The notes: generated by a model not told the origin, from the sequence alone. A stretch of 64,000 bases of DNA from Candidatus Heimdallarchaeota archaeon (GCA_011364965.1 RDOB01000003.1:567822-631821); one strand, 5' to 3'; shown: positions 30,855-61,073, numbered from the stretch's first letter. Program-made: numbers and translations.

Positions 30855-30883
30855 TTCGTTGGCAATACCTACGAACCTCCGTA
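30855..30883 (+). repeat. Cassette-boundary site, type A
   Basis: TTCGTTGGCAA-TACCTAC-GAACCTCCGTA. Confidence 0.85.
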
Positions 30884-30913
30884 TATCAAAAAAATGAACT
30901 TCAAATACCCAAT

Positions 30914-31303
30914 TTATGAGATCCACTTAAGTAATGTTTCACTATCCTGTTTCAATTCCCAAAATCGTATATATAGATGACTAATTGATATTATTTTACC
31001 CATTTTTTTCGCTTTGGTATTGAAATCTGAATGTTTAAGCAAACGTTGAATGAAGGTTGCTACTTCTGTTTGACCTACAGTTAAATAAACGATACAATAC
31101 TTAGAGTGACAAAGATCTTTTTGATATAATCCTCCATCACGGGTGAAAAAGGTTACTTCTCCGTTTTTATGCAAGAATGGGATGATTTCTGGATCTTTCA
31201 TCCCTTTCCTACCAACTTCATAACTAATCTGGTGTACATGTATTTTCTAACTTTGTAATAATAATCTCTGACTATCAATGATATTTTCATCAAGAAAGAT
31301 CAA
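30914..31303 (-). pseudogene. DUF5615-like PIN toxin with an in-frame stop
   Basis: TTG 31303 MIFLDENI..., TAG at 31247-31249, then GMKD...FFTRD; start overlaps the DUF433 stop. Confidence 0.75.
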
Positions 31304-31566
31304 ATCTCTGAAGACTCCGGAGCGAGCTTTGGATTGTAAGAAATAAATAGTTCACGTGCTAATCGTATAGCCTCTGCAATTGCTTCTTTAGACAAAGAAC
31401 CACGCCATTCATTAACAATAGCTTCCCAATCCATTCCATTTGCCACTTGTTCTAGAACATCAGCCACTAAAATACGTGTGCCTCGAAAAGTTGGCTCTCC
31501 ATGGCAAATTTCAGGATCTTTGACGATAAATCTACCTAAGTATATTTCCGAGTATGTAAACCTCAT
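31300..31566 (-). CDS. DUF433 antitoxin
   Basis: DPEICHGEPTFRGTRI motif; start uncertain. Confidence 0.88.
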   Translation of the reverse strand: MRFTYSEIYLGRFIVKDPEICHGEPTFRGTRILVADVLEQVANGMDWEAIVNEWRGSLSKEAIAEAIRLARELFISYNPKLAPESSEI

Positions 31567-31693
31567 CAGAGGGTAAAATAATGTTTGCTTATTCCTAAAT
31601 TTTCTGTTAATTGTATTCAATCAGTATTTAAAGTGATATTCTTTAATTATTTTTCCTTTTTGCCATTTTACTCCAATCTCAATATGACATTAA

Positions 31694-31753
31694 ATGTTCC
31701 TAAAATATTATTTTTTGGGAAGATATCGTTGGTATTACACATAAACCTCTTTA
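31694..31753 (+). repeat. Cassette-boundary site type A with left hairpin flank
   Basis: ATGTTCCTAAAAT..TTTTTGGGAAGAT-ATCGTTGGTAT-TACACAT-AAACCTCTTTA. Confidence 0.8.
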
Positions 31754-31970
31754 TATTCCTAAAAACTTATTTTTTGGTTAGAATTGCCTTTATAAAATGA
31801 TATTTCTACAAAATAACATTCTGATATTTAAGAGAAAAATAACGGTTTTCAAGAGGTAAATTCAGATTTGGAGAAGAAAGAAAATTTATGTAAGAAACAT
31901 TTTTACAATTATTTTCGTATCAAAATGCTTTTAGATATCATTAAAACCAAGCTAGATAAGAAAAAAACGA

Positions 31971-32873
31971 TTATTGAGAAATATTGGGCTTTAACATGTC
32001 TCTTAATTTTACTTGTTGATGATGAAATTTTCTCTCATAGGCCACAATTTCACCTTCGATGGCATCTTTAGGACACCATTCAAAACAAGCGATACAATTT
32101 TCACAGTGATGCAGCCAGATGGGCGTAGTATTTACCACTTCAATGTTCCTCACTGGACACACACGAGCACAAATTCCACATCCATTGCATTTCTCATTAA
32201 CTTTGAAGCTCTTATCTGCTAGATGAATGAGCTCAGTAAAGGGAAGATTAGGGACTTCTGAAAGTTGCTTATAGCGTACAGAATACATAAATCTCATAAA
32301 GAGGTTATAAGGTGCCATAATTGTTTTCCATAACCTACCTGGAGTTTCAAACCAGCCTTCTTCAAAGTTAGACACATAGTTTGTTATGATTTCAAGTTTC
32401 CTTTTCCATTTAGCTACTTTTAGTTGTAGTTGAGGTGAATCCTTGTTTCCTGGGTCAAAATTCCTTAAGTCTTGATGTAAAAAGACTCGTCTCATTTTTT
32501 CTAATGGAGAGGGGGGTATGCTCAGCTGTACAGTAAATCCAGCAGCAAGGTCTCCTCCCTGATTCCTAATCATCTCTCTTAAATTTTCAATTGTTGATCC
32601 AGGTCCCCCCTTATGCGTACAAACAGCGAATACATATTTAGTACTGAGATTCTCCAATTTATCCAGAAATTGTTTAACTATCAGTGGAATACCACTGACT
32701 GCAGCAAAATAAACGGGGAATATGATCCCAATAACATCTGCTTCGGATTTTATGGACACCCTATCCATCACGGATGGGATTGAAATCAGCTTTCCATTGA
32801 GTTCTAATGCAAGATCCTGGGCGACAACCAAAGAATTTCCAGTGCCTGAAAAATAATATATCTCTTTATTCAT
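31971..32873 (-). CDS. EFR1-family flavodoxin-ferredoxin fusion
   Basis: YFSGTGNS; CxxCxxCxxxCP twice. Confidence 0.9.
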   Translation of the reverse strand: MNKEIYYFSGTGNSLVVAQDLALELNGKLISIPSVMDRVSIKSEADVIGIIFPVYFAAVSGIPLIVKQFLDKLENLSTKYVFAVCTHKGGPGSTIENLREMIRNQGGDLAAGFTVQLSIPPSPLEKMRRVFLHQDLRNFDPGNKDSPQLQLKVAKWKRKLEIITNYVSNFEEGWFETPGRLWKTIMAPYNLFMRFMYSVRYKQLSEVPNLPFTELIHLADKSFKVNEKCNGCGICARVCPVRNIEVVNTTPIWLHHCENCIACFEWCPKDAIEGEIVAYERKFHHQQVKLRDMLKPNISQ

Positions 32874-32893
32874 TGGCTATTTCACCTTATTAT

Positions 32894-33355
32894 TCAAAAA
32901 GAGATCAACCTGGTTGTATGTACTACAAGAAATAAAAAACCGACACCTGTAAAACCCCATTTGACAAATCTGATAACTTTCCATTCTAGGTCTTTTTTAG
33001 CGTCCATAGGTTTAGATTTATTCTTAATACTAAGAATAGCACCTAATGCTAATAATATTACCATAATAATTCCTAAAATCCATCCAGTAATCCAATCCGA
33101 TTGATTCACAGGTGTTGAGGTAAATCCATGAACAAGTGACAGTATCAATGCGAATTTGCAACCATTAATGTGTAAATGATAGAGTAGTACTTTCCTTTTC
33201 TCATAGAATCCATGACAAGGCTGATTATTCCATTTTTTATCAATAATTTTTAAAATAATAAAGATCGAACCTATCAGTAGCAGTATCTTGGCAGATGATG
33301 CTGATAGGTCACTGATTATTACATTTACATTTGCTATCAATTTTTTTAACTCCAT
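32894..33355 (-). CDS. Small 4-TM membrane protein with intramembrane His residues, possibly haem b-binding
   Basis: Hydrophobic helices with LH, VHG and VH. Confidence 0.55.
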   Translation of the reverse strand: MELKKLIANVNVIISDLSASSAKILLLIGSIFIILKIIDKKWNNQPCHGFYEKRKVLLYHLHINGCKFALILSLVHGFTSTPVNQSDWITGWILGIIMVILLALGAILSIKNKSKPMDAKKDLEWKVIRFVKWGFTGVGFLFLVVHTTRLISF

Positions 33356-33386
33356 TCTGTTGGATTTTTACTTTCTTCACTTTAAC

Positions 33387-33426
33387 ATATTGTCCGATAA
33401 TGGACAATATGTCTAATACTGGACAT
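33387..33426. promoter_or_regulatory. Tandem TetR operator palindromes
   Basis: ATATTGTCC-GATAAT-GGACAATAT overlapping ATGTCT-AATACT-GGACAT in the divergent promoter. Confidence 0.7.
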
Positions 33427-33467
33427 AATGGGTAATTATTTAAAGGTTTTCGTTTACTATTCTAATC

Positions 33468-34199
33468 ATGAAGAAAACAGCTAAAAATAAGTCGAACGCG
33501 TTCCAACCAGAAAAAATAACGAAAGTGGATAGAAGAATAAAGAAAAATCTTAACGCCATTTATAAATCAGCTAGTCAGCTATTTACAGAAAAACCATTTG
33601 CTGATATCACCATGGAAGAGATAGCTGAACGAGCTAATATTAGTCGGTCTACCTTATACAATCATTTCAAAAGCAAACACGAAATTTACTTTCAAATGGG
33701 ATATGACCGCTTTAAATCTGTTAATGATGATTTGATTAAACTGAAGACCGCCCCAACGACTGGTTTTGAAACGATTATGACCCTCTGTGCAGAATTGTTT
33801 AAGAATATCAATAAGAATCCCATGTATACGAGAATAGTTTCTTTGTTCCTAGTAAACAAGAATCTCCTAACCGTTGACAAAATATTGGACAACGAATTAC
33901 CTCCTCAAGAAGCTCAGAACATGTTCGAATTACCTGACATCGAAATCATGGCCAAGTATTTGGAACAACTCCGTAGATATGAAGTCCTTTGGGCTGAACT
34001 TATCGCTAAAGGGATTTCTGATGGATCGATTATCACAAACTTAACACCAATTCAGCTAGCGCATTACTTATTCCTTATAATTAATGGAACCTTTGACCAG
34101 ATGATCTTAAAGCAATATGTTCTACAAAAGTTTGAATTGACGAATGAGATGATCTTTGACAAGACAATGAACATCATAAAACGAATACTTCACGAATAG
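33468..34199 (+). CDS. TetR/AcrR regulator
   Basis: ITMEEIAERANISRSTLYNHFKSK. Confidence 0.93.
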   Translation: MKKTAKNKSNAFQPEKITKVDRRIKKNLNAIYKSASQLFTEKPFADITMEEIAERANISRSTLYNHFKSKHEIYFQMGYDRFKSVNDDLIKLKTAPTTGFETIMTLCAELFKNINKNPMYTRIVSLFLVNKNLLTVDKILDNELPPQEAQNMFELPDIEIMAKYLEQLRRYEVLWAELIAKGISDGSIITNLTPIQLAHYLFLIINGTFDQMILKQYVLQKFELTNEMIFDKTMNIIKRILHE

Positions 34200-34241
34200 C
34201 AGTTTCAAAAGGTATACGGTTTAAGACCCCTAGATTCTTAA

Positions 34242-34270
34242 TGCGTTGGTAATACGACATCCAAACAACT
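34242..34270 (+). repeat. Cassette-boundary site, type C
   Basis: TGCGTTGGTAA-TACGACA-TCCAAACAACT. Confidence 0.7.
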
Positions 34271-34303
34271 AAGAGCGAAAAAACCATAAATTTCTATATG
34301 AAG

Positions 34304-34390
34304 AACTCAACAAACGTCTAAGCGATTTTATTAACTAAAAATATGATAAAGAGTTGCTCTTCCTCTGAATCTATACAGAAAACGAAGTTC
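34304..34390 (+). repeat. 87-bp direct repeat, copy 1
   Basis: Near-identical to 38167-38253. Confidence 0.85.
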
Positions 34391-34439
34391 CAGACATTTT
34401 GTGGTGATTTTGTCTGCTTTTAAGAGATAATGAGGCTAG

Positions 34440-35063
34440 TTACAATTCATGTATTTCAAACAACTTTTTGGTTAAACTAAGTAGATAATCGGAGAATTCT
34501 TCTTCATTCTTAGCGGGGAAATTTCGGTAGAACACAAAATGATGGATAGCTAGATCAATTATAGTGGAATTAGCTATTATCTCTTTTTTGGTCATTTTTC
34601 TGGGAATTATACCCAAATCGAATAAATTTTCAAAAACAGGGATGACACTAATTACTTCTTGAGCAATCGCTCGCGAATCTTGAAAAACAGTTTGATCACT
34701 TAGCATGGCGATTTCCATTGCCTTAGTAAGTTCTATATTTTCCTTATGTGAAGTAACAAATGCTTCAAGTAAATGTTTGAGCTCCAGTTCCCAATTTGAT
34801 TTAGTAATCATTGGCAAAACTTTTTGGAGATCTACATTAAAATCAGCTAAAATAGATTTAAGAATGTCTGATTTTCCTCTAGGAAAATATTTGTATAATA
34901 AACCTATACTAACTCCAGCATCCTTAGCTATGCCATGATTAGTAACTTGTAGGTAACCTTTCTGTTCAATTAATTTTCGAGTAGCTTTTTTCAATCTAGA
35001 AATTTTTTGAGGCTTATTTCTAGTTATTATTGTTGGTTTTTTCTCAGATTCTTTTTTATTCAT
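34440..35063 (-). CDS. TetR/AcrR regulator
   Basis: IAKDAGVSIGLLYKYFPRGK; ATG 35063 preferred because the longer start falls inside the operator. Confidence 0.9.
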   Translation of the reverse strand: MNKKESEKKPTIITRNKPQKISRLKKATRKLIEQKGYLQVTNHGIAKDAGVSIGLLYKYFPRGKSDILKSILADFNVDLQKVLPMITKSNWELELKHLLEAFVTSHKENIELTKAMEIAMLSDQTVFQDSRAIAQEVISVIPVFENLFDLGIIPRKMTKKEIIANSTIIDLAIHHFVFYRNFPAKNEEEFSDYLLSLTKKLFEIHEL

Positions 35064-35110
35064 TTTTTTTACCTTTGAAGCCGGGAATATCAAGTATTTT
35101 TTTAACTGCT

Positions 35111-35176
35111 TTAGTGACACATCATCACTAACTTAATAAATATTTAGGAAAATTATTAGTGACGGATCGTCACTAA
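35111..35176. promoter_or_regulatory. Two TetR operator palindromes
   Basis: TTAGTGA-CACATCA-TCACTAA (35111-35131) and TTAGTGACG-GAT-CGTCACTAA (35156-35176). Confidence 0.75.
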
Positions 35177-35223
35177 ATCATCTAATTATTAAATCAATAC
35201 AAGAAAAAAACGGAGATAAAAAA

Positions 35224-36369
35224 ATGTCTATTAAAAAGAATATAATTACGAAACTTCCAGATTCTTGGCAAGATAGGATTTTGGCTCGTGTAATAGCTAG
35301 TAACGAATGGAAACGTATTCCAACATTTCAAATGCTGTTCGAATCATTTGTTTTAATGGGTGGCGCACGTGATGATATCACTACAGTCTTTACGAATGCA
35401 AATGATCTTAATACTGACTTTTATAAAGTTGCACGTGAACAAGCTAAAGAAAGAGAACAAATAGCCGCTAAAGAAGTTAATCCTTCAAATAAACGAATAG
35501 AATATCAAAAAGCTTTACTCTTATATTTTCTTGCAGATTGGGTGATTTCTGAGGAATCATTATTTAGAGAGAATTATAGCGATTTATTACGCGTTTCTGA
35601 AATAATTGATTCATTAGGAACAATTCCTACAAAAAAAGTGTATTTAGAATGGGAGGAAGGACATATAGCTTGCAGATTACGAATACCAATAAATCAAAAT
35701 AATGGACAATTTCCTCTAATGGTCCTTGTACAAGGGAATGACACAGTTAAGGAAACTTTATTATTTGTTGAGGATAAGTTAATAGATCAAAATATCGCTG
35801 TTTTGAATGTGGACCAACCTGGATGGGGGGAAAGTTTAATGTCAGGGAATCATTATGTTATTTCTATGATATATGATGCTGATAAGATAACAAATGAGAT
35901 ATTCAAGTTTTTAGCAACCGTGGAAAGGATTGATATAAATAGAGTAGGAGTGTTTGGATTTAGTGGAGGTGGTACGATGGCTACTATTTTAGCAGCAGCA
36001 GATCAAAGATTCAAAATCATGGTTTCATATGGTGGAGCAATATATGATTTAGGAAAAGCAATCAAAGGTTTACCAGCAATGCAAAAACGACAACTGCTTA
36101 AACATTATGGGACGTCAAAAAATCAATTAAAAAAACTTATTCCAGCATTTAATTACGATCGAATCTTACCGCAAATTCAATGCGATTGCTTATTGATTCA
36201 TGGAGAAAAGGATACCTTAGCTCCAGTAGAGACCATACATAAAGCAGCAGAATTAATCTCGGGTCCTGTTGAAAAGCGTATTGTCCCTGGTGGTAATCAT
36301 ATGTGCTCAGATACAATGATGGAAATACAGATACCTTTTATGATCTCATGGATAAAAAAGAAAATATAA
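35224..36369 (+). CDS. Alpha/beta hydrolase (FrsA/DUF1100-like)
   Basis: DQPGWGES, GFSGGG nucleophile, HGEKD, GNH. Confidence 0.88.
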   Translation: MSIKKNIITKLPDSWQDRILARVIASNEWKRIPTFQMLFESFVLMGGARDDITTVFTNANDLNTDFYKVAREQAKEREQIAAKEVNPSNKRIEYQKALLLYFLADWVISEESLFRENYSDLLRVSEIIDSLGTIPTKKVYLEWEEGHIACRLRIPINQNNGQFPLMVLVQGNDTVKETLLFVEDKLIDQNIAVLNVDQPGWGESLMSGNHYVISMIYDADKITNEIFKFLATVERIDINRVGVFGFSGGGTMATILAAADQRFKIMVSYGGAIYDLGKAIKGLPAMQKRQLLKHYGTSKNQLKKLIPAFNYDRILPQIQCDCLLIHGEKDTLAPVETIHKAAELISGPVEKRIVPGGNHMCSDTMMEIQIPFMISWIKKKI

Positions 36370-36583
36370 TAAATTAATCCCGAACCATTTAAGGAATCTT
36401 CATACACGTATTGGGATTGGATTCACACCTCTATCAACAAATTGGTATTTTGGAGTATCTTTCAGCACGCCAATAGTAATAATAAGGATTAGTTGGTAAT
36501 ATTTCTAAGATAAGAAGGTACTAAAAAGACTGCACACACCAACCGTTTCAGATGTATATATTCAACAGTTTCGTTCGATAAAC

Positions 36584-37303
36584 TCAATGTAAACTTTTTT
36601 CTTTAATAAATCCTGTTAAGGTCGAGATTAGAGAGAGACTCATGCCGAGAAGGACTATCAGTAATGTTTCAAAGTAAAATTTCAAAACATCTTGAAAAAT
36701 AATATTGAGAACGACAACTATAGAAAGTTCCATCAAGAAAAAGAACACTAATAAACATGATCCAGCGATAATTTGTGCTACATACAAAATGAGATTTTTG
36801 AGATATGTACTTTTCCCAATATTGGAAGCAGATCGAACTGAAGCAAAAAAGGAGGCCTTGTCATTTAGTAAAAAGAACGGTACTCGCTCTGTGTATGCGC
36901 CAACGAAAATGACGAAAAGGAAATAGCTAACAAATAATAACGGAGTTACGTTTACAATAACAAGTACTATTCCCACACTTAAAGGAATTCCCGGCCACAG
37001 AACTCCCCATTTGATAAATTTCATCTTGGATTGATGAGAAAAATGTAAGGGTTGCTGAGAAGCGATCCTAGAGCCAAGTAGATTAAAATAACTAAACCAA
37101 GGCCAGGTGATGATGAAAGAAGCAAGGGGCAATAAGAAAAAAGGGACAAATTCATTGCCAGGACCCTCAAGAGTGAAATCCCAATTAGAACCATAAATAA
37201 TAAGGGAAATAGTCATTATCCAGATGAAATAATAGATGTAATTCTGGAGCAGCGCTCTAGGGAAGTGTATTTTTGTTGTGATCTGAATCATTTCTTTCAC
37301 CAT
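36584..37303 (-). CDS. Hypothetical multi-pass membrane protein
   Basis: 239-aa ORF with about 6 TM helices. Confidence 0.7.
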   Translation of the reverse strand: MVKEMIQITTKIHFPRALLQNYIYYFIWIMTISLIIYGSNWDFTLEGPGNEFVPFFLLPLASFIITWPWFSYFNLLGSRIASQQPLHFSHQSKMKFIKWGVLWPGIPLSVGIVLVIVNVTPLLFVSYFLFVIFVGAYTERVPFFLLNDKASFFASVRSASNIGKSTYLKNLILYVAQIIAGSCLLVFFFLMELSIVVVLNIIFQDVLKFYFETLLIVLLGMSLSLISTLTGFIKEKSLH

Positions 37304-37375
37304 TCCATTAGGGAAGTATATTTACCCTTCTGATCTAGCTTCAGTTTCACAATCAGCCCCCTCTCTAAACTCAAG

Positions 37376-37732
37376 TTAGGATTTTTTTACCTCCAAGACA
37401 ACTGCTTCAATATCCGAGGCCTTTATTGTTCTTCGTCCCTTTTGTTGGGCGTAAGTAACAGCTTTTTTAGCAATATTTGTAGCTACTCGTACAATATCAG
37501 CCTCAGGATCTTCTGGTCTTCCAAAACTTATTCCTGTTTCTGATTCCTTTTTTATAATTACAGAAGGGAATTCCTTAAAGTTAAAATCTCGTTTCAAGAT
37601 CTTTCCTAAAGTATCAGTGGCAATCCTTGAAAATCGAGCTGCCCCACTATGACGAAGGATCCATTCACAGAATAGTCGTTCTTCATAACTTATATCTTTA
37701 TTTTGATTTTCCATTTTTATCGCATCAAACAT
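37376..37732 (-). CDS. Archaeal histone-fold protein with a 34-aa insertion
   Basis: ILRHSGAARFSRIATDTLGKIL and IAKKAVTYAQQKGRRTIKASDI match the two halves of an HMf-type histone. Confidence 0.8.
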   Translation of the reverse strand: MFDAIKMENQNKDISYEERLFCEWILRHSGAARFSRIATDTLGKILKRDFNFKEFPSVIIKKESETGISFGRPEDPEADIVRVATNIAKKAVTYAQQKGRRTIKASDIEAVVLEVKKS

Positions 37733-38166
37733 TCCTAAATAATACCTGAAATATGCTTGCAGTTAAACTGAATACCACCGTCAAATAATATAAATTTATT
37801 TTCAACTCATCTTTGATTTTGTAGAAATTTCTGAGGAATATCGCCATAATACTAGATGGAATTTTGAAGCAGTATTTTTGCAATGTAAGCTTCAGATCTG
37901 ACCAACTCTGGTTCACATTGTTTTACGTGTAGAAAACATAGTGGTTGGTATTTGTATTCTCCTTTTTGTTATGATTGCGCAACACGAAGGTAAGCGGAGT
38001 CGAGAATATTTCGAGAGGTTATGGAGGGGAGGATTTTTTATTTTTTCCAGCTATAACCCGCTAATCATTTTTAATTTTTTTAATTTTGGTTAATTAATAT
38101 AATTATTCTCTTTTTCGATTACCCTATTCTCTTGTGATATCATAAGTGTTGCTTTGTTAAATAAAA

Positions 38167-38253
38167 AACTCAACAAACGTCTAGGCGATTTTATTAACTA
38201 AAAATGTGATAAAGAGTTTCCCTGTCCCTGAATCTATAGAGAAAACGAAGCTC
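38167..38253 (+). repeat. 87-bp direct repeat, copy 2
   Basis: Near-identical to 34304-34390. Confidence 0.85.
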
Positions 38254-38577
38254 ATTTTTTATAAAACTCGTTAATTCCAGAAGAGGAAGTTTATATAGAA
38301 TAGATTTTCTGCTAGAAACCAATATTGTATAAGCTATACTTTCATTTTGCAGAAGAAATGTTACCAGAATTAAAACAGAGATATTTATTATAAATAGACA
38401 TGAAATTTAAAGAGGAGACTTAACAAAGAGTAAATTTTAGTTAATTTAATATTATGGAAATTTGATCTCTCGCAGTTTCGCTTTATCACGATACAACTCT
38501 TGAGCCTTAATTTCAGTAAGTTCGCTCTCTTCTAATAATCCTAATTTCAGTTCACAATGATATTTAAGTAAATCATC

Positions 38578-39225: not shown

Positions 39226-39439
39226 GTCCTATAGCAAAAATGAGATTTGAAAATTTGACCTTAATAAATCATTTAAAGAGTTACCTCTATTTATACTTTT
39301 AAGAAAAATAGAGATGAAAGATAGATTTTATGTAAAGTCAACCGTTCTAAATATCACTAGTCAGCAATCATTAAAGGATGTAAATATATTTATAACTCAT
39401 TTTTAGCATCCTCTAAAACTATTCTATTCTATCTAATTT

Positions 39440-39856: not shown

Positions 39857-39937
39857 TTTAGATATATGTACAACTGTTTAATAACATTTTTACAAGGAGT
39901 TGTACTTGGTTAAAAGATCATAGAGCAGATTATTGAG

Positions 39938-41041: not shown

Positions 41042-41059
41042 TAATGCATGGAAAAAGAG

Positions 41060-50431: not shown

Positions 50432-50439
50432 CTCCTTTT

Positions 50440-53400: not shown

Positions 53401-53970
53401 TGATAATTTTTGTGATACTCGGCTAACAGAAATTATATCTTCACGAAAATTTCCATCAAAGTCACCAGTTGCGACTTCAACTACAATATCTGGACCCCCT
53501 TCAGCAATATAATCATTAAGAGCAGCTCCAAATTGAGGAGATTCACTCATATTCTCATTATACCTCCGATAGATAGCCCCAATGTTTTGTCTAAGATAGG
53601 GAGAATAATCTGACTCTACCAATTGATTAATAGTAAATCCAAAATCCTCGCTTCCTAACAGGGCAACATGATCTTTACTCAACGGATGAGAGAAATCCGA
53701 TCTCATCTTATTTGAGAGGGAGTTCACGTCTTTGTGTAGTGAATCCATCTTTCCACGAATAATATCTTCTCCATTTGCATAATGATCAATTATAGTATAC
53801 TCGATAGGATATTCATTCATCTTTCTCGAGCTAAATGGAGCTTCAACATATTTTAGTTTATTAAATAGTTGATCAGAAAGGTTTATGGATCCGAATACTC
53901 CCCAAAAGATAAAAATATGAATGATAAAAAAAAATTTAACAAATAGAAGAAAATTAGACCTTTTTCTCAT
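50440..53970 (-). CDS. Large surface protein with FG-GAP/VCBS-like repeats and a C-terminal TPGW-TM-basic anchor
   Basis: GDFDGN, GDIDGD, GNVDGD, GNIDKD, GDIDAD, GDVDRD repeats; N-terminal hydrophobic helix; TPGWSFFSLIAIVIPAIYKILKR. Confidence 0.82.
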   Translation of the reverse strand: MRKRSNFLLFVKFFFIIHIFIFWGVFGSINLSDQLFNKLKYVEAPFSSRKMNEYPIEYTIIDHYANGEDIIRGKMDSLHKDVNSLSNKMRSDFSHPLSKDHVALLGSEDFGFTINQLVESDYSPYLRQNIGAIYRRYNENMSESPQFGAALNDYIAEGGPDIVVEVATGDFDGNFREDIISVSRVSQKLSIQIQEMWGNGYFQIMTTNANSVMFDCEINPTVTSGDIDGDNIDEFLILGTNQSQPYIWIFEDLVNSNSSNGLILYGDKIILKSFQEVNSYVTSGVDSMHCTQITTDFAPNEAEFTILNAYALNWTGPLQYGDEVVLRDHENCYWSVNEQSDLLELILKSDPSDIEEKNKFVLVNDNNPNQTGNVYYNNFISFKDSRGKFVRSPQVASSSYDIALSEALGSWQWYKIIPSNDKLPHSFLNDLIPLDTLSDEEYSRIDMLSRPSSSNYDYHIASKSITTGNVDGDENDEIIIAGMDPLGRARAWIFDDRFNKFAKIHEFIWEDQIVDINFCIATGNIDKDSQTEIIFLLSNNTFGQVEIYDDGFSPRNYPHLKSIESSEDNFCGLVTRLKTGDIDADGLDEIILVNGSCWIHVWDDILTNFSLIDNWSVPDSLIMESLISFYHNAYGLDFSNLINNIPIDLVCGDVDRDGSEEVFLALFKTKTANLMDGSISLWTTWELNGSSFSYMNVDSPFIEAFFSVLFDIVQPSIPFGDMSTVARVPKISFGDYNADCFSLKYIDHKVYSTNEQVFAVMAAPPTQADISQNYDESNTNYGQGVSSSSSEFYGGQTSFGGYIGLDIDISCGAVINVKIGSFEVEGALIFEFTYTYTLVSTTTRISSYSGDYSSDYVIFSSCSYDRYIYEIIDCPDVRAVGLNYSIHIPNTPETYKWDREYYNSHNSLLAKDIGSETYNHTIGYIPSYPSNEEMKKIAPKRSETDAMQVGKGQGSNTVEIDFSKEASHDFEFELNFQGRIGVEFVGLTGGWMGSIGGHGGFSIGWGHETMFSGTVGDIKNANDYANFRYKFALCVYKKYIYDSSLIEEAKELLTELFGFDPTDEFSPFNYDPDNQIWDPRENKSLLQTPPDVRKIENAFKSLKGFNKLLLGDPYYVIDYWVEIPEFWGSDGQQVVDYASDLEELINNFNTPGWSFFSLIAIVIPAIYKILKRDKHF

Positions 53971-54314
53971 TAGGAATTCCCCTGTAAATATCTACAAATA
54001 ACAGATTTTCTAATATCCCAATTTATAGCAAGAATTAACCTCATTATCGGGATTTAACTTCATATAAAAAGATTAAGTCTTAAAATGTACTTAAAATGTA
54101 GTAGTTGGTTTGATTTGTCTTAAAAAAGAAGAAGATTACATTATTTCTAAGGTAATGCTACAAAAAGACATATAAAAATGTTTGGTCTATAAATTGTGAA
54201 TAAAAATCTAAATTAACAAAAGAAATCAGATTTTTACTGACAAAAGTAATAGAGATGATTTTGCATTTTTTTTTCATGGTTGAATTCAATTTAATTGACT
54301 CCGTAGTACACTAC

Positions 54315-54343
54315 ATCGTTGGTTAAGTTTTGAAACGTATTTA
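54315..54343 (+). repeat. Cassette-boundary site, divergent right half
   Basis: ATCGTTGGTTA-AGTTTTG-AAACGTATTTA. Confidence 0.55.
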
Positions 54344-54400
54344 CTATGGTTTATTCCTGTTATATACTTCGTACGATAATTGGATCAGGAATAATAGGTC

Positions 54401-55291
54401 TTATTTGTAGTATTTCAAAGCTATTTCCTCTTTTCCAGGTTCAAAATTATCCCAGAACTCCTTGGCGGGGTGACGCAAATCATAGTCAACTCGTGTATCG
54501 TGTAGAACTCGTGAACAATAAGGATCTCCTTGTGCAATGGTATGCTCCATTGTTAAAATTAAGCTCTCATCACGCATTTTTGCACCTTCGTAATCGCCAT
54601 AACAACAGACAAGGTATTTAAGTTCAGAATCTGGCAATTCTTCCAAGGCGTCAACCCAAGAACAATTGTTATTGCGATAGGCATATTTTCCTTCATTGAG
54701 TAATGCATGGAATATAACCCATTCTGATGGTTTGTCTCCGGGTTTTATACGATTTTCCAATAGAGTTTCAAGGTCAACAAAATCACTCTCATAATTTTTT
54801 CGTCGTTCTTTCTGGAAACACGTGATATATTTCTTGTAGAGCTTAATCGCCTCTTCTCGTCCTATAGTTTCGATCAAGGCCACAAGATTGTAGTATCTAG
54901 GAAGGAGGAATGAATGTAAATAATCTTTATTTATGACATTGATTTTTTCATTGCTCCACTCGATTTTCTCTGGTACTTGAAGATTGTGTAAATAGAAAGT
55001 AAGACTTAATTGAGCTAATTCAGGATTTCTTCGCAGGTAATCGAACTCGTCGATTAGTTCATCGAAACTGATTCCTAATTTCTTGATTAAATTTTCCTGC
55101 ACTAATTTTTGGTATTGATTCTGTAAATTTAACACATACTTCGTTACCACACTGGGCTTTTGATCATCTATAAATCCAAGTATAAAATTTAGTCTTTTCA
55201 AAACCTCTCGTTTAGCATTAGCATAAACTTGTATTTCTACTTCAAATTCAAGAGCGTTTGACATTGCTTCACCAGTTCTTGAGACTTTCAT
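54401..55291 (-). CDS. L-2-amino-thiazoline-4-carboxylate hydrolase-like protein
   Basis: C...CCYGDY...TIAQGDPYC pattern. Confidence 0.72.
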   Translation of the reverse strand: MKVSRTGEAMSNALEFEVEIQVYANAKREVLKRLNFILGFIDDQKPSVVTKYVLNLQNQYQKLVQENLIKKLGISFDELIDEFDYLRRNPELAQLSLTFYLHNLQVPEKIEWSNEKINVINKDYLHSFLLPRYYNLVALIETIGREEAIKLYKKYITCFQKERRKNYESDFVDLETLLENRIKPGDKPSEWVIFHALLNEGKYAYRNNNCSWVDALEELPDSELKYLVCCYGDYEGAKMRDESLILTMEHTIAQGDPYCSRVLHDTRVDYDLRHPAKEFWDNFEPGKEEIALKYYK

Positions 55292-55353
55292 TGTTTTTTA
55301 AACCTCAATTTATTCATAATTATAATTAAACCTGATAAAGATATAGCAGAGTA

Positions 55354-55665
55354 TTAAGTTTCTATTCTTTCCAGTTTGAAACAAACTGGTCTTTTCCCAT
55401 CTGTACAGCTAGTGTACATTATATTTGGTTCTGTCCAACTATGTTCTCCACCGAAAGCTAGGACTAGAAGGTCTTTGTATAAATCATGCCACGCCCAACC
55501 ACAGAAATTTTGAGGTTTTTTCAACCCTTCCACCAGAAATTCTTGTCCTTCTTCAAAGATGGAACATATCGTTACGATTTGACCTGAACAGGGAGCGAAA
55601 AGATCATGTCCGACGACATCTTTGGGGCTAAACTTTTTTATCACAGAAATTTTTATTTTATCCAT
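55354..55665 (-). CDS. TIGR04076-family protein
   Basis: C..FEEGQEF...KP.NFC.WAW.D, CTDG.RPV.FKLERI. Confidence 0.85.
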   Translation of the reverse strand: MDKIKISVIKKFSPKDVVGHDLFAPCSGQIVTICSIFEEGQEFLVEGLKKPQNFCGWAWHDLYKDLLVLAFGGEHSWTEPNIMYTSCTDGKRPVCFKLERIET

Positions 55666-55789
55666 TACTGTAACTACCTCCTTTTTTTCCGCTTAATGTG
55701 CAATCCATTCTTTTTTATAATTTAACTCTTTAATGACTCTAAATGCTCCATAATACCATTCTACACAATTTGTATAATTATGTGACTGT

Positions 55790-56107
55790 TTACGTTTCAA
55801 TTTTTTCAATAGTGAAAACCACGGGTCTCATACCATCCGTACAGCACACATAAACCTTTTGTTCTCTCCAATCTTTCCCCGCACCTAACGCTAATGTAGA
55901 AACGTCCTTATAGATGTCATACCATGCCCATTCACAAAAGTCTTTGGGTTTCTTCATCTCTTCTACTAGGAATTCTTGTCCATCTTCAAACAAAGAACAG
56001 ACCGATATGACTTTCCCGGAAGGACTCGTCATCTCCTGTCCAAATACTTCTTCAGGCTTAAAACGCCTAACAACTGAAACCTTGAGTTTTGTCACCTGTA
56101 GTACCAT
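55790..56107 (-). CDS. TIGR04076-family protein, tandem paralogue
   Basis: Same motifs as 55354..55665. Confidence 0.85.
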   Translation of the reverse strand: MVLQVTKLKVSVVRRFKPEEVFGQEMTSPSGKVISVCSLFEDGQEFLVEEMKKPKDFCEWAWYDIYKDVSTLALGAGKDWREQKVYVCCTDGMRPVVFTIEKIET

Positions 56108-56416
56108 CTTTAAATTCGATTCTTTAACAATAAATATTGATTTAGTGAAATTTCTCTAGTTCAAAACTCTTTATCTGTATAATAAACTTTTAGCTTCAGG
56201 CAAAAGAGCGTAGGTTGACTAAACGAAAATTTTGTTGCCATTGTCGATTCATTCTGAGCTATGATAGTTGATCAAAAAACAACGACTCTCCATTTAGTCA
56301 TATCCACAATGACCCTTAATTGGATTGATGAAACTATTAATTATCAACTTTCCTAACAACCCCATTGCTCCCCACAACTTTACATATAACGAATTGATAA
56401 AGATTTATAATCAAAC

Positions 56417-56445
56417 ATCGTTGGTTATACGACATCCATCTAAAC
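56417..56445 (+). repeat. Cassette-boundary site, type C
   Basis: ATCGTTGGTTA-TACGACA-TCCATCTAAAC. Confidence 0.75.
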
Positions 56446-56505
56446 AATATTATTATTCATTATATACATATTAATATTATTTCCATTCCTTCCCGTTCAC
56501 GACTA

Positions 56506-57636
56506 TTGAAGGGAGCAAAAAACTTCTATAGTAAAATGATGAGGAGAAACCAAATGACAGCAGAAAAAAACTTTCGAGGAACCTATCTTCCAGAGAAAGA
56601 ATTTAGCTTGCTAAGAAACATAGAATTAAAAATTGAGAGACCGATATTTAGAAGAAAGAATAAGCGATCAGAACTAGATATATCACATGATACAAGAACT
56701 TATTTTGACATAGATTGGACAAAGGTAACAGCACTGAGTATATTTAACACGAAAATGTCATTTCTACCTGAAGAAATATTTGAACTTCTTAACCTAGAAG
56801 AACTGGAATTGAGTTGTAACCATATCACATCGTTACCAGAAGCAATCGCCAAGTTGACAAACCTCCAAAAACTGGATTTGAGTTATAATCAGCTCACATC
56901 GTTACCAGAAGCAATAGCTAAGTTGACAAACCTCCAAAAACTGAATTTGAGTGGTAATCAGCTCATATCGTTCCCAGAGCCAATAGTCAAGTTGACAAAC
57001 CTAAAAACTCTATATTTGGGTGGTAATCAGCTCACATCGTTCCCAGAAGCAATAACAAAATTGACAGAATTAAAAACTCTATATTTGGGTGGTAATCAGC
57101 TCACATCGTTCCCAGAACCAATAACCAAATTGACAAACCTACAAGAATTGAATTTGGATTCTACTCCATTAATATCGTTCCCAGACACAATAACAAAGTT
57201 AACAAATCTAAAATCTCTACTTTTGGGTGATAATCAGCTCACATCGTTCCCAGACACAATAACCAAATTAAAAAACCTACAAGAATTGGATTTGAGATGT
57301 AACCAGCTCACATCATTACCAAATACAATAGCCAAATTGAAAGACCTACAAAAACTGGATTTGAGTTATAATCAGCTCACATCGTTCCCAGAACCAATAA
57401 CCAAATTAGTAAACCTAAAAACTCTCAATTTAACTAGTAACCAGCTAACAACATTACCAAAAACAATAACTAAATTGAAAAACCTAGAAAAACTTATTTT
57501 GAATCAAAACCAGCTCAAATCGTTACCAAAGTCAATAGACAAACTAAATCACTTAGAAGAACTTATTTTGTATAATAATTATGGTTGTAATTTAAAAAAC
57601 CAATCAGAGAGAGTAAAAAAGATATTGAAAATTTGA
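56506..57636 (+). CDS. Leucine-rich repeat protein
   Basis: About 12 repeats of 23 aa (LxxLxLxxNQLTSxPExIxK), visible as 69-bp DNA repeats at about 56790-57570. Confidence 0.95.
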   Translation: MKGAKNFYSKMMRRNQMTAEKNFRGTYLPEKEFSLLRNIELKIERPIFRRKNKRSELDISHDTRTYFDIDWTKVTALSIFNTKMSFLPEEIFELLNLEELELSCNHITSLPEAIAKLTNLQKLDLSYNQLTSLPEAIAKLTNLQKLNLSGNQLISFPEPIVKLTNLKTLYLGGNQLTSFPEAITKLTELKTLYLGGNQLTSFPEPITKLTNLQELNLDSTPLISFPDTITKLTNLKSLLLGDNQLTSFPDTITKLKNLQELDLRCNQLTSLPNTIAKLKDLQKLDLSYNQLTSFPEPITKLVNLKTLNLTSNQLTTLPKTITKLKNLEKLILNQNQLKSLPKSIDKLNHLEELILYNNYGCNLKNQSERVKKILKI

Positions 57637-57790
57637 TAATCAGTTTTATTTAACAATATTCTAGCCCTATCCTCAATTATTTACTTCTCCTTTTTCAATA
57701 AATCCTTAATATAAACGCTAGAATTCCAACTTTTCTATTCACTTACCTATTGTGTAATTGTCTTTATATCAATAATTATTATGAATCATT

Positions 57791-57819
57791 TTCGTTGGTA
57801 TTACACCCGAACCTCCGTA
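57791..57819 (+). repeat. Cassette-boundary site, type A
   Basis: TTCGTTGGTAT-TACACCC-GAACCTCCGTA. Confidence 0.88.
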
Positions 57820-57886
57820 TATTCCATTTCTTTTAGATTACAAATTTTCTGAATGAAGATAAAAAGGAATCTAATTAAGGGGTTAC

Positions 57887-58345
57887 TTAATCGATATCTT
57901 TTTTGGCCCATTCCACCAAATCATCACTAAGATACAGATCAGTTTGTAATTTTTCCAAATATTCTTGATAGCTGTCTCTTGTTTGAATTATTTTTTGAGT
58001 GTAAAGAAGTTTTAATAAACCTAGGGTTCCGATAACTAAGATACCCCTCTTTTTTGCTATTTTCCTTAGTGCCAAGTCATCTGTTGCTATCATTGAGTTC
58101 TTTTCAATGGCAAGTGATATTAATGATATGTCAGTTGTACTAATACTCAAAGATTCTGCCTTAGTTTTATGGGATGGAACCTCTATATTTATCCAAGAAG
58201 GAATCTTAGTTTTTATCCATTTTTTTGAAAACTCTTCAATAACATCGGGTGTGGTGGCATAAGTCAGATTTAGCTGGTGGAGTTGTTCTAACAATTCAAG
58301 ATATGTGAAACTGCTTAAGACACTCGTGTCTAAAATAAGCATCAA
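57887..58345 (-). CDS. PIN-like toxin (DUF3368-type)
   Basis: ILDTS, E, TDD..LR, GTLGLL. Confidence 0.82.
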   Translation of the reverse strand: MMLILDTSVLSSFTYLELLEQLHQLNLTYATTPDVIEEFSKKWIKTKIPSWINIEVPSHKTKAESLSISTTDISLISLAIEKNSMIATDDLALRKIAKKRGILVIGTLGLLKLLYTQKIIQTRDSYQEYLEKLQTDLYLSDDLVEWAKKDID

Positions 58346-58346
58346 A

Positions 58347-58622
58347 TCACTTCAAAAGGTTCTTAGCGGCTTGAAATTCTTCTTCAGCTTCTTTTGATGA
58401 AGTTGGACCTCCTGATCTAATTAAACGACGTTTACGAAATTCATCTAAGAACTTGTCCACCTTCAAACCTGCAAGTTCAGCAGATTTTGATAGACTAATT
58501 TTTCCTTGTTGATAAAGTTCAAAAAGAATAAGTAAATGATTTTGGTGTTCCAGATCCTCTTTGGATAATCCTGATAACTCAAGTAATTGGCGTGAAACCT
58601 TAATCGATATTTCTTCAGTCAT
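58347..58622 (-). CDS. UPF0175-family antitoxin
   Basis: LYQQGKISLSKSAELAGL. Confidence 0.85.
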   Translation of the reverse strand: MTEEISIKVSRQLLELSGLSKEDLEHQNHLLILFELYQQGKISLSKSAELAGLKVDKFLDEFRKRRLIRSGGPTSSKEAEEEFQAAKNLLK

Positions 58623-58710
58623 TATACTCGACCTTATAGAAACATAGCTTGATTTTAATTAATATTATCTATTAAATTAAGTTTCCTATTCCTGATCTGA
58701 ATGAATTTTT

Positions 58711-58768
58711 ATTCCCATAAAAAATTTTTTTAGGAAGATATCGTTGGTAGTACATACGCACCTCCGTA
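58711..58768 (+). repeat. Complete cassette-boundary site (hairpin flank + type A)
   Basis: ATTCCCATAAAAAATTTTTTTAGGAAGAT-ATCGTTGGTAG-TACATAC-GCACCTCCGTA. Confidence 0.88.
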
Positions 58769-59197
58769 CAAAAAATTATTTGCAAAATTGAATCTATCTT
58801 GTCTTTTTCAACTAAATTTTCTCTGAAGGTTCAATGAAAATAAAAATAAGGGTAATTTCCTATTATAATTAGATTCATAGAGGAATGGAATTTTGACCTT
58901 AGGCTTCAAAGACTTGATGAATGAACTTAATCAACTTAAGACCAATAAGAAAAACTTAAAGGGGATGTTGAGCTCTTAAAGGTAAATTTTCAATCTTTTG
59001 GATATTCTAAGGAAGATACATTGGTTATAAATGAGGAACTTCAGGAAATTCAACAAAGTAAAGATCTAGTTAATGCTGGTATCTTTGAAGAATTTGAAGA
59101 GCTGAAATAGCTTGACGTACAAGATATTATTATACCGTTAAAACGCAAATAATGGAATTTAAAAAGCAATTCCTATATTTAATGAAGGAAGACAATA

Positions 59198-60382
59198 TTA
59201 TACATCATCATTCACTCTCAACTCATAAATTATTGAACCTATAAGTATCATACTAACAATTATTCCAAAATTGAGAGGTAAGAAGAACCAAATTGGAATT
59301 AAGATAATCATTTGGAAAAAAAGAACCTTAATACTAAACATAAGGTTGGTTTTTCTCAATATATAGACAGTAGCACTTATTAATATAAATAAGCTAATGG
59401 GAATCTCATACAACCAAAGAAAATTGGGTGAATGGAAAATAAAAATGATTCTAGGACTAATTGTAAGAATAATTGTAACCAAAGCGGTAAAATATGGGCT
59501 TTCCTGATTCTTTACAAGATGAACTAGAACGGAATAATCATTATAAACGGGATATTCTTTCAATGTATCATATAAAACCAGAAGAATGAGGATGAACAAA
59601 CTCATGATGATTAGTGAACCAAGTAATACTGAATACCCCCAAAGCAGACTTAATGTATTAGATCCATATTGATAAGGATTGTGGTAATCCTTTATAAGGA
59701 AAGTAATGAAAAATAGGGAGAATATGAAAGAAAACGCGCTTACAAGTATAATCAGAAACAATCGCTTTATTGAATCAATAGATCTATATAAATAACCAGT
59801 AAACAACAAAAAGCAAAGAACAAGCGTCAGAGGAAACCTGTAAAAAACCCAGAAGTTCATGAGTGGATTAAAGACTGTATAGAGAAAGAATGAAACCTCA
59901 TTGAATATAAAAAGATCTGTAACAGAATCAATAATCCTCAGAAAAATATAAGGGAGTTCTCTAAAAGGCATATCGTCGGGGATAAGTCTAATGACATTAT
60001 AACCTTCTTTTGAGACGAAATACATAATTGCTGGAATAGTCCACAATGCAAAGTATGTCATCAAGACTCCCAATAGAGTTGACATGATCTTTCTGTTATA
60101 GGCCGCAAAAACCTTTTTTAATTTTCGTACTACCGTAAATCCATCTTTTAATTCTATTAATTTATATTTTCCTATCAAGGATTTAGCAATTTCCTCTGGA
60201 GATTCCAAATTGGTAATGAATTGAAGTTTTAATTCTTTCTCTGGTATATCTGAATACTCCAACTTGAAATCACTCCATTCCTCAAATAAGTTTGTACGCA
60301 AGTCTTCCAAAAGCCTTAAATCACCCTTTAGCTTTATAATCTCAACCTTAACTTGGTTTAAATAAGCTTCAATGCTTTCCAT
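59198..60382 (-). CDS. PadR-associated membrane protein with a HAAS-like N-terminal domain
   Basis: IEAYL..V...LESPEEIAK followed by about 8 TM helices; directly after PadR. Confidence 0.7.
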   Translation of the reverse strand: MESIEAYLNQVKVEIIKLKGDLRLLEDLRTNLFEEWSDFKLEYSDIPEKELKLQFITNLESPEEIAKSLIGKYKLIELKDGFTVVRKLKKVFAAYNRKIMSTLLGVLMTYFALWTIPAIMYFVSKEGYNVIRLIPDDMPFRELPYIFLRIIDSVTDLFIFNEVSFFLYTVFNPLMNFWVFYRFPLTLVLCFLLFTGYLYRSIDSIKRLFLIILVSAFSFIFSLFFITFLIKDYHNPYQYGSNTLSLLWGYSVLLGSLIIMSLFILILLVLYDTLKEYPVYNDYSVLVHLVKNQESPYFTALVTIILTISPRIIFIFHSPNFLWLYEIPISLFILISATVYILRKTNLMFSIKVLFFQMIILIPIWFFLPLNFGIIVSMILIGSIIYELRVNDDV

Positions 60383-60394
60383 TCTAATATCCTC

Positions 60395-60766
60395 CTACGA
60401 CGATTTTTCCAGATTTTTAAATGCCACACGGCTTGTATCTATGAGATTATCCCAAAAATCAGACATTTCTGATAGGATTTGTCTTCCCTTGTTAGTTATT
60501 GAGTAATAACGACGTTTATCTTCCATTTTGGAATCAACAAGAAAATATTTCTCTTCAAAATTTCTTAATATCGTGTAAAGTGTGCTGTAGTTAACTTCAA
60601 TGTCTCTATTCGTTATTTCAGAAAGTTTTTTCTTAATTTTATAACCCCAAGTCATTTCATCATGGTTAATGATTGTTAAAATCAAAATCGCGGTTAAAGA
60701 ACCTTTAGCATCTTTCTCAAGACGAGTCAAATATGATGAAGATACATCTACACTTGAAGGAGTCAT
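60395..60766 (-). CDS. PadR-family regulator
   Basis: WGYKI, STLYTIL, RRYYSITNKG. Confidence 0.9.
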   Translation of the reverse strand: MTPSSVDVSSSYLTRLEKDAKGSLTAILILTIINHDEMTWGYKIKKKLSEITNRDIEVNYSTLYTILRNFEEKYFLVDSKMEDKRRYYSITNKGRQILSEMSDFWDNLIDTSRVAFKNLEKSS

Positions 60767-61044
60767 ATACTATTTCACACTTCTATATATCAAACAATGA
60801 CTATATCATACTTCGACTTATTTATACTTTTTCATCTCTCAATAACCCAATCTTCAATCAATACCTGTTCACACAAAAAGGGATTTTATCTACAAGAGAT
60901 AGAGTATGTCTTGTCTTGCATGGACTAACATGAATTAAGATAAACAAAACGATTTATTGACAATAAAGAATATGCAAGATTCTTCAAATCTTTAAAAGAC
61001 AGTTCTTAACATATGCTATTTGGTTGTGCGAAAGTTTGACATTA

Positions 61045-61073
61045 CACGTTGGTTATCCGACATAAAGACAACA
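61045..61073 (+). repeat. Cassette-boundary site, type C
   Basis: CACGTTGGTTA-TCCGACA-TAAAGACAACA. Confidence 0.7.

Follow-up and report, generated by a model that had tools for sequence, protein, structure and literature searches.

The final 33 kb of a Hodarchaeales (Asgard) contig consist of a row of gene modules divided by short sites that all face the same direction. We read this region, which runs from position 30855 to the contig end in the window (the whole 64,000-nucleotide stretch analysed here), as an array of mobile gene modules with oriented sites used by an Xer-type recombinase, for which the protein here named IntH is the best candidate; our confidence in this reading is slightly better than even. 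A preliminary description of the same DNA had inferred a site-specific platform for shuffling cassettes that is neither an integron nor a pdif system and crosses over in or close to a core motif, and the analysis supports that proposal.

All 13 sites listed in that description were found at the same positions and on the + strand, and they fall into the types it had distinguished (six of type A, two of type B, four of type C and one singleton):

30855..30883, + strand: site 1, type A, core ending in C; the carboxylesterase module common with G008 stops in this core
31725..31753, + strand: site 2, type A; left flank of the hairpin/T-run family
34242..34270, + strand: site 3, type C
41013..41041, + strand: site 4, type A
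41961..41989, + strand: site 5, type B, TATA-like box in the right half; one end of the contig-level deletion in metagenome run X16
42890..42918, + strand: site 6, type A
43686..43714, + strand: site 7, type B; other end of the X16 deletion
49129..49157, + strand: site 8, type C, variant core (A at position 2)
54315..54343, + strand: site 9, singleton type in the window, found also in the relatives G010 and G008
56417..56445, + strand: site 10, type C; its left flank family pairs with three distinct right families in the species compared
57791..57819, + strand: site 11, type A
58740..58768, + strand: site 12, type A; a contig in run X19 diverges directly after the core
61045..61073, + strand: site 13, type C

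The exact 7-mer CGTTGGT is present in 11 of the 13 sites, the exceptions being those at 30855 and 49129. Between 30800 and 61100 it occurs 11 times on the + strand and never on the − strand, against 0.15 occurrences expected (Poisson P = 1.7e-17) in the 10,294 nt of this span without long ORFs, at the rate of non-ORF DNA elsewhere in the genome. A search of the whole 2.97-Mb assembly found the type A and type B right halves only in the window's array. A 9-mer scan with one mismatch allowed gave 15 matches versus 8 expected, which alone is not significant; the site signal resides in clustering, strand and placement, not in the simple 9-mer count. Genome-wide scatter of the motif, which would have refuted the earlier proposal, is not the case. 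The fixed direction of the sites between convergent, divergent and tandem genes was confirmed. The statement that no site lies in a credible gene holds with the qualification that those at 49129 and 61045 overlap small ORFs (71 and 68 aa) without family support.

The invariant part of the site is an asymmetric 6-base centre, CGTTGG, mostly followed by T; invariance is limited to 6–9 bases and the flanks are diverse. The 11+7+11 geometry suggested earlier fits type A and none of the other types, and is valid for that one type only because crossover maps to the 6-base centre. Placing the crossover at or near the core was correct, but the core acts as the central region of the site and not as its left binding arm. 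The inverted repeat described earlier for type A proves weak: 5 of the 7 core bases can pair with positions 19–25, and no base in between is paired. The most conserved element is the type A right flank, a point against the recombination reading, which has no explanation for it. We also observed that type B right halves carry a TATA-like box ahead of + strand genes, that several left flanks are T-rich, terminator-like hairpins, and that at a minority of module ends a hairpin lies a few bases 5′ of the core.

Between the sites lie modules of one to eight genes on either strand, mostly 0.8–2.5 kb in size and mostly holding one gene or one toxin-antitoxin pair. The modules are:

29033..30854, − strand: carboxylesterase module ahead of site 1, 91% identical to G008; left boundary without a core
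30884..31724, − strand: module 1, DUF433 gene and a 95-aa partner
31754..34241, strand not given: module 2, flavodoxin/4Fe-4S protein, 153-aa protein, TetR
34271..41012, strand not given: module 3 (6.7 kb), TetR, alpha/beta hydrolase, histone-fold protein, unknowns and a MazE/PIN pair, the MazE/PIN end being 89% identical to G011
41042..41960, − strand: module 4, gene pair of 139 aa and 128 aa, 88% identical to G020 from core to core
41990..42889, + strand: module 5, ICMT/PEMT-type methyltransferase
42919..43685, − strand: module 6, TumE toxin with a partner of 91 aa; another MAG has a contig that carries it at 98.9% identity, with different neighbours on both sides
43715..49128, strand not given: module 7 (5.4 kb), Ntn-type hydrolase, integrase remnant, M24 peptidase, metallo-beta-lactamase fold protein, PadR
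49158..54314, − strand: module 8, FG-GAP surface protein of 1176 aa and a 213-aa protein
54344..56416, − strand: module 9, ATC-hydrolase-like gene with a pair of small paralogous genes, matching G010 and G008 at 94% identity over the full core-to-core length
56446..57790, + strand: module 10, leucine-rich-repeat protein
57820..58739, − strand: module 11, UPF0175 and PIN-like pair
58769..61044, − strand: module 12, 394-aa protein and PadR
61074..64000, strand not given: terminal stretch cut by the contig end, with small wHTH element copies, a DUF433/DUF5615 pair (89% identical to G018, where two sites flank it) and PIN

Two labels given earlier, a PIN partner for the first DUF433 gene and a protease, found no Pfam match; the DUF6516 pair is present, under the family's current Pfam name, TumE.

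Copies of four modules are found in further species of the genus, with 88–99% DNA identity and homology running from core to core, whereas the xerA locus of the same genomes is only 66–70% identical. Similarity to the relatives' copies begins and ends within the core, and module order and content vary between relatives, as the preliminary description had anticipated. Among 68 non-redundant sites of the genus, 9 of the 11 left-flank families with at least two members pair with differing right-flank families. The 27-base type A sequence, with up to three mismatches, is present in 12 of 21 further species within the genus and in none of 20 genomes from elsewhere; among 185,579 species genomes it was seen only in Hodarchaeota-type MAGs. 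Metagenome contigs carry other sequence directly 5′ of the core at 57793 and directly 3′ of the core at 58748, and the complete genome G010 has arrays at several loci, in both directions. As far as comparison of genomes can tell, the sites are recombination junctions, and the same comparisons demonstrate transfer of modules between species as units, with differing neighbours.

We did not observe a recombination product directly, the comparison with the window being limited to assembled contigs. One metagenome contig (run X16) lacks exactly two modules, from site 5 to site 7. This deletion is ambiguous, because the 31 identical bases common to both sites at its endpoints equal the assembler word length; it may be an assembly-graph artefact or the result of ordinary homologous recombination. 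Two further observations count against the model: the array is nearly unchanged in the runs of six studies, and no core marks the left boundary of the carboxylesterase module.

The array contains the dead remnant (45479–46095) of a two-gene operon encoding a small partner protein and an Xer-like tyrosine recombinase, IntH:

45688..46095, − strand: partner gene, 135 aa, probably a ribbon-helix-helix and a long helix
45479..45691, − strand: IntH N-terminal stub, 70 aa, Xer-like integrase, overlapping the partner gene by 4 nt

The stub retains only residues 1–70 and is 47–58% identical to the N-terminus of intact integrases of 284–297 aa, which are always preceded by an overlapping partner gene (99–135 aa). 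The IntH family has 44 members among 5.8 billion proteins; every named member derives from Hodarchaeota, Hodarchaeales or Heimdallarchaeota MAGs. Its best matches are archaeal XerA proteins; the G010 homologue matches PF00589 (Phage_integrase) at 2.3e-24 and, over residues 7–274, XerA of PDB 4a8e at 1.7e-19. IntH scores 99.8 bits against the archaeal XerA equivalog, not reaching the cut-off of 220, and is 22% identical to the XerA of the window's genome. Judged from these alignments, IntH is a paralogue of XerA and not XerA itself.

An intergenic core lies within 350 nt of IntH at 7 of 15 distinct loci, where about 0.05 would be expected per locus, and the flanks of these cores belong to the flank families of the array. 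One array site of G010 has a deletion-derived remnant of the IntH operon after it. The recombinase inventory called for in the preliminary description placed the assembly's two integrases outside the array; the IntH stub within it is a concrete lead that the description had not connected with the sites. There is no integrase at the array start, and no serine recombinase or Y1 transposase in the assembly. We infer that IntH is the best candidate enzyme for the sites and that host XerA is its rival. Against IntH, 8 of the 15 loci have no core nearby, and the intact protein is found in only about 3 of 21 species.

In the mechanism that we propose, a tyrosine recombinase of the Xer kind would exchange strands at both edges of the 6-base centre, a module between two direct sites would leave as a circle with one site, and the excised circle could enter any other site. 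Modules would bring their own expression signals. IntH and its small, probably ribbon-helix-helix, partner would be the enzyme pair, as inferred from the position of their operon beside sites in relatives. Since that operon remains here only as a dead remnant, the window's array is probably immobile now, unless it is served in trans by host XerA or by an IntH arriving from outside. The broader proposal, that Hodarchaeales possess an integron analogue of their own, in which modules with promoters of their own are taken up, cut out and rearranged at a 6-base-centre site by an integrase of Xer origin and its small DNA-binding partner, and pass between species, remains tentative, and we put it a little short of even.

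It is unlikely, though a possibility to be taken seriously, that host XerA, the enzyme of chromosome resolution, uses the sites as dif mimics, in the way of XerC/D on pdif modules and IMEX, with IntH being the integrase of an unrelated element. XerA is the sole recombinase present in every genome checked, the invariant centre has the 6 bases of Xer sites, most arrays lack an integrase, and in one right-flank family of relatives 9 of 11 positions agree with the right arm of Pyrococcus abyssi dif (dif sequence from PMC2958812). But the host dif was not identified (two candidate palindromes, C11:552470 and C9:515492, lack conservation across the genus), arrays lie at multiple loci and in both directions in the complete G010, type A sites are identical across species despite the 66–70% identity of xerA DNA, and the array is static although xerA is intact. 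Dyad symmetry of the 11-base flanks is also no higher than chance (3.43/11 versus 3.28/11; about 4.1–4.3 for families other than type A). This counts against both IntH and XerA, as a homodimeric Xer enzyme would be expected to require such symmetry.

The pdif and dif sites are 28 bp long, with two 11-bp arms inverted around a 6-bp centre. The pdif modules of Acinetobacter plasmids, moved by XerC/XerD, resemble the array in their short Xer-type sites with a 6-base centre, their small mobile-context modules, toxin-antitoxin pairs included, and the absence of an adjoining dedicated recombinase. They differ in that pdif sites face opposite directions and lie on plasmids, whereas the array sites are one-way and chromosomal, have no recognisably symmetric arms, and are linked to a dedicated Xer-like paralogue, IntH. 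A pdif arrangement was rejected because all 13 sites face one direction; no inverted core lies nearby. IMEX stacked at dif (such as the CTX, RS1 and TLC arrays of Vibrio cholerae) are likewise integrase-less elements in tandem between copies of one site, but they occupy the single chromosomal dif and use host Xer, whereas several arrays per genome are found here.

That the array consists of leftovers from many separate integrative elements, which entered in tandem at one attachment site and later lost their integrases, seems improbable to us. Tandem integration is known in archaea (PMC8371274), some IntH homologues have a primase or restriction-modification genes as neighbours, in the manner of plasmid- or virus-like elements, and the array does hold one integrase remnant. 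Tandem (tycheposon-like) islands also keep cargo between repeated attachment sites in a variable island, with a tyrosine integrase in some copies only. Their sites, however, copy the end of a tRNA or other gene, whereas the window lacks tRNAs and the type A flank is not the end of any intact target gene (the frame ending there is open for just 6–48 codons in 29 of 29 copies). The modules are much smaller than those of such islands and mostly too small for self-mobile elements, mini-modules of 36–87 bp exist, and integrase remains occur in only 1 of 13 modules.

We give little credence to the action of some other enzyme, be it HUH/rolling-circle, IS110-type with a guide RNA, or unknown, that inserts modules beside a short core. 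The few invariant bases amid diverse flanks, the hairpins ahead of some cores and an IS110-type gene on the same contig would suit it. But Y1/HUH transposases are absent from the assembly, the hairpins are confined to a minority of module ends, the IS110-type gene is 460 kb distant and such elements move only themselves, and an Xer-like integrase is demonstrably linked to the sites. IS or MITE ends, which would also have refuted the earlier proposal, were not found: the cores are only direct and oriented, and no transposase was found in the modules.

Very improbable is a regulatory element (promoter, terminator or regulon operator), with modules shared through homologous recombination or vertical descent. 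The TATA-like boxes and terminator-like hairpins fit this idea, but the motif keeps its direction between convergent, divergent and tandem genes, and descent or homology-dependent exchange is excluded because modules are 88–99% identical against a background of 66–70%, with breaks inside the 7-base core.

An attC site is an imperfect palindrome of 55–141 nt that carries inverted R boxes and adopts its fold as single-stranded DNA. Checking the array for attC-type features, as proposed earlier, revealed none: for the 113-nt stretch that ends in each core, folding yielded z values between −1.02 and +1.34 and left the core unpaired, folds on the downstream side lay between −1.5 and +1.6, no inverted core within 150 nt of a site surpassed the controls, and the window had no Rfam match. 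Integron identity was rejected, since attC fold, inverted core and IntI are all absent. Integrons and CALINs, including archaeal ones (Ghaly et al. 2022, PMC9668308), share with the array a chromosomal row of co-oriented sites between small accessory modules, many of them toxin-antitoxin, modules common to several species, a frequent lack of an adjacent integrase, and a likely enzyme of the Xer/IntI branch. They differ in having a long folded attC where the array has a short, double-strand-type site, and in having IntI, attI and Pc; their cassettes are mostly single promoterless co-directional ORFs, whereas array modules often have two or more genes, in either direction, with their own signals, and every junction in the array combines the end of the module on its left with the start of the one on its right. 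A classical integron array minus its integrase (CALIN) is scarcely credible despite the co-oriented array, the GTT in the core and the CALINs reported for the Asgard genus Hodarchaeum, as the Hodarchaeum attC, a 75-base G+C-rich palindrome, is of a different kind (PMC9668308), IntH falls far under integron-integrase cut-offs (69.5 versus 265 bits), and module genes run in both directions.

We found no published description of a Hodarchaeales module-array system; what is new here is the IntH operon remnant in the array and the linkage of IntH to the sites. Integrons are the textbook device for gene capture and reshuffling, long held to be bacterial. If our reading is true, Hodarchaeales, the archaea placed closest to eukaryotes, would do an integron-like job with other parts, a short Xer-type site for the folded attC and an Xer paralogue for IntI. 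The compact site and the candidate enzyme pair are directly testable. Such a system would account for Asgard assemblies breaking at islands of this kind, and would offer a specific path for the extensive gene flow that has been inferred for Asgard genomes.

We found all 13 sites with the core CGTTGG(T) at the positions that the preliminary description had assigned to them, every one on the + strand. Their right halves are of type A at six sites, type B at two and type C at four; the site at 54315 is single in the window and has counterparts in relatives. Exact 7-mers within 30800-61100, counted only in the 10.3 kb outside long ORFs, number eleven on the + strand and none on the - strand (0.15 expected, P = 1.7e-17). 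Genome-wide scatter, which according to the preliminary description would refute a cassette platform, was not seen: within the 2.97-Mb assembly (16 contigs, 87% complete; the window is the final 64 kb of contig C11), type A and type B sequences are confined to the array. Scanning the window with Rfam and ARAGORN (tRNA) gave no match.

In a cluster-weighted profile of the sites the left flank shows only weak preferences, and the 7-mer is followed by T then A. Where a site adjoins an integrase gene, position 7 is A instead of T, which leaves six bases as the invariant part. The 11+7+11 geometry proposed earlier stands for type A alone, where it rests on 5 of 7 pairs, and fails for the other types. 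Complementarity between the 11-base flanks of the centre did not exceed chance (3.43 vs 3.28 of 11 positions expected), and we accordingly make no claim of an 11-6-11 palindrome.

The modules between consecutive sites hold genes on both strands. Their cargo comprises toxin-antitoxin-like pairs (DUF433 with a partner, MazE/PIN, TumE with a partner, UPF0175 with a PIN-like protein, and DUF433/DUF5615), regulators with enzymes (TetR, PadR, hydrolases and a metallo-beta-lactamase fold protein), a methyltransferase, an LRR protein and a 1176-aa surface protein; a PHROGs search with ten unassigned module proteins gave no match. Sites of type A have a - strand gene as the next gene, and sites of type B, whose right half contains a TATA-like box, a + strand gene. 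Because the type tracks the strand of the next gene, each right half is in part a piece of the downstream module. We also rejected the reading that type A is a target gene's displaced tail, as no intact gene was found. The LRR gene (56671-57591) is made of 69-bp tandem units, and one metagenome contig is short by one unit, with 57001 joined to 57071. Type C sites head an element of about 420 bp that includes a small wHTH-like ORF and a stretch rich in purines.

Copies of the type C-type element in the window
49129-49560, element headed by a core
61045-61500, element headed by a core
62364-62630, further copy without the core
63662-63840, further copy without the core

The PIN-gene end of module 3 recurs as a partial copy (85%) at 28561-28905, before a carboxylesterase module, so the mosaic region extends to the left of the first site, without cores there. 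In loci from relatives, cores only 36-87 bp apart form mini-modules (L059, 1460-1503; L015, 10008-10095; L032, 4396-4455), which look as if a module start had been joined directly to a module end.

We compared modules of the window with other species of the genus (G-numbers) and with other MAGs.

Modules shared with other genomes (window coordinates)
29033-30862, carboxylesterase module, 91% identity to G008
41014-41991, shared module, 88% identity to G020
42892-43694, shared module, 98.9% identity to another MAG (2.2-kb contig)
54317-56428, shared module, 94% identity to G010 and G008
61643-62362, shared module, 89% identity to G018, where two sites flank it

The DNA of the xerA locus is only 66-70% identical between the same genomes. 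The preliminary description had placed the crossover at or near the core, and the breakpoints do fall there: in the junction alignments there is no similarity up to the base preceding the core, then near-identity across the module, ending directly past the next core, beyond which the neighbouring sequence is different. In addition, 68 non-redundant sites outside long ORFs, taken from the window and the relatives' loci, sort into 44 left-flank and 17 right-flank families, and of the 11 left families that have two members or more, 9 are combined with at least two right families. Junction alignments and flank reassortment together confine the crossover to the shared core, and the junction data agree with the core being the putative central region of the site.

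Type A was searched for with a 27-base query (42892-42918) allowing up to 3 mismatches. It occurs in 12 of 21 further species of the genus, frequently without mismatch, and is absent from the 20 genomes searched in neighbouring genera; a reversed control also gave no match. A degenerate version matched 20 stretches among 185,579 species (one genome each), all in MAGs labelled Hodarchaeota or a synonym, including CP070695.1, the complete chromosome of G010. A further site family in our own genome (C8:3145, C8:11137, C12:498298(-), C12:508469(-) and C12:514913(-)) has a conserved 22-base left flank and 8-10 kb spacing. As its core is the same, the system is not confined to the window array.

From the length of the centre and the linked integrase described below, we infer that a Xer-type tyrosine recombinase would act at the edges of the 6-base centre. 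Our assembly encodes two tyrosine recombinases, one on C9 that is XerA-like and one where C1 begins, and no serine recombinase or Y1 transposase, with one distant IS110-type gene. The gene on C1 (C1:230-1219) was discarded as a candidate, being unrelated to IntH, the integrase named here, and having no core nearby. The complete G010 has just two tyrosine recombinases, neither beside the arrays first found there. In the window, a 70-aa ORF (45479-45691) matches the N-terminus of the second of these, which is 290 aa long (58% identity), as well as integrases of G021 and G011, and the upstream gene (45688-46095) matches the gene upstream of those integrases, with the same 4-base overlap. IntH is Xer-like: it matches XerA of PDB 4a8e at 1.7e-19, shares 22% identity with our genome's XerA, and its score with the archaeal XerA model, 99.8 bits, is under the cut-off of 220. 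The partner protein has no family assigned; its structural model has a possible strand, two short helices and then a long helix, and Foldseek gave no significant match for this model, the top weak hits being ribbon-helix-helix proteins.

About 3 of 21 species have a complete operon of IntH and its partner, and at least 4 more carry fragments of it. Among 5.8 billion proteins the IntH family counts 44 members, and every named one comes from a Hodarchaeota-type MAG, in most cases from a short contig. An intergenic core lies within 350 nt of IntH in 7 of 15 distinct loci, typically some 67 nt upstream of the partner gene (by our estimate, about 0.05 expected per locus from the genomic core rate), and the flanks of these cores are of the same families as in the array; at an eighth locus the centre is a variant. 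One array site of G010 precedes an IntH operon remnant with an internal deletion. A core inside the G010 IntH gene, considered as an SSV-type self-splitting site, is absent from other homologues and thus a coincidence. An IntH-like gene from a neighbouring genus lies on a coreless contig of 2 kb, too short to be informative. On L095, the contig of the homologue P0023, the operon adjoins a D5_N/DUF5906 primase gene, and other homologues adjoin restriction-modification genes; with such neighbours, some members ride plasmid- or virus-like elements.

It is possible that host XerA, rather than IntH, acts at the sites, as IntH is patchy in occurrence and half of its loci have no core nearby. We nevertheless favour IntH, because its lineage range is as narrow as that of the site, it is physically linked to cores and its remnants lie inside arrays; this is the weaker step of the inference. 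As host dif we rejected a dif-like, AT-rich palindrome at C9:515492, absent from all other species of the genus checked, and a near-palindrome at C11:552470-552497, present in only one other species. The latter is intergenic, 15 kb ahead of the window, with the same centre and arms complementary at 8 of 11 positions.

Sampled words of 40500-50499 were 74-99% present in metagenome runs of six studies. Population data were assembled contigs only, aligned to 40500-60499; coverage was uneven and gaps were not interpreted. One contig of run X16 joins 41961 to 43687 and thus lacks exactly modules 5 and 6, which is only a hint, because both sites share 31 identical bases, the assembler's word length. 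Contigs of three runs have other sequence immediately before 57793; since they share only 57793-57838 with the window, they probably represent another type A site from elsewhere, not a variant of this locus. Contigs of run X19 have different sequence immediately after 58748. Apart from such junction contigs the array looks stable across samples, which fits a dead IntH copy in the window. AT-rich 18-bp palindromes (43881-43898, 45371-45388 and 46112-46129) flank the Ntn-hydrolase gene and precede the IntH partner gene; metagenome contigs stop or switch context at 43860, 43897, 45350 and 46142, and related palindromic words adjoin cores near IntH in G010 and several relatives. Possible roles for them are as arm-type sites, as operator sites or as junctions of a second kind.

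The array had been likened to integrons and to pdif modules while being held to be neither, and both exclusions stand. For the 113 nt up to and including each core, folding is no better than for shuffled sequences (z from -1.0 to +1.3), and the same is true of the downstream side, and no inverted core was found within 150 nt of the sites; the attC published for the genus Hodarchaeum is, unlike these sites, a G+C-rich, 75-base palindrome (Ghaly et al., PMC9668308). For pdif, sites of opposite direction are missing from the array. Insertion sequences and MITEs are ruled out by the lack of both inverted ends and a transposase. None of the papers we found on archaeal integrons, Asgard mobile elements or archaeal tyrosine recombinases describes such arrays. 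Direct sequence evidence shows the array to be a site-specific recombination platform.
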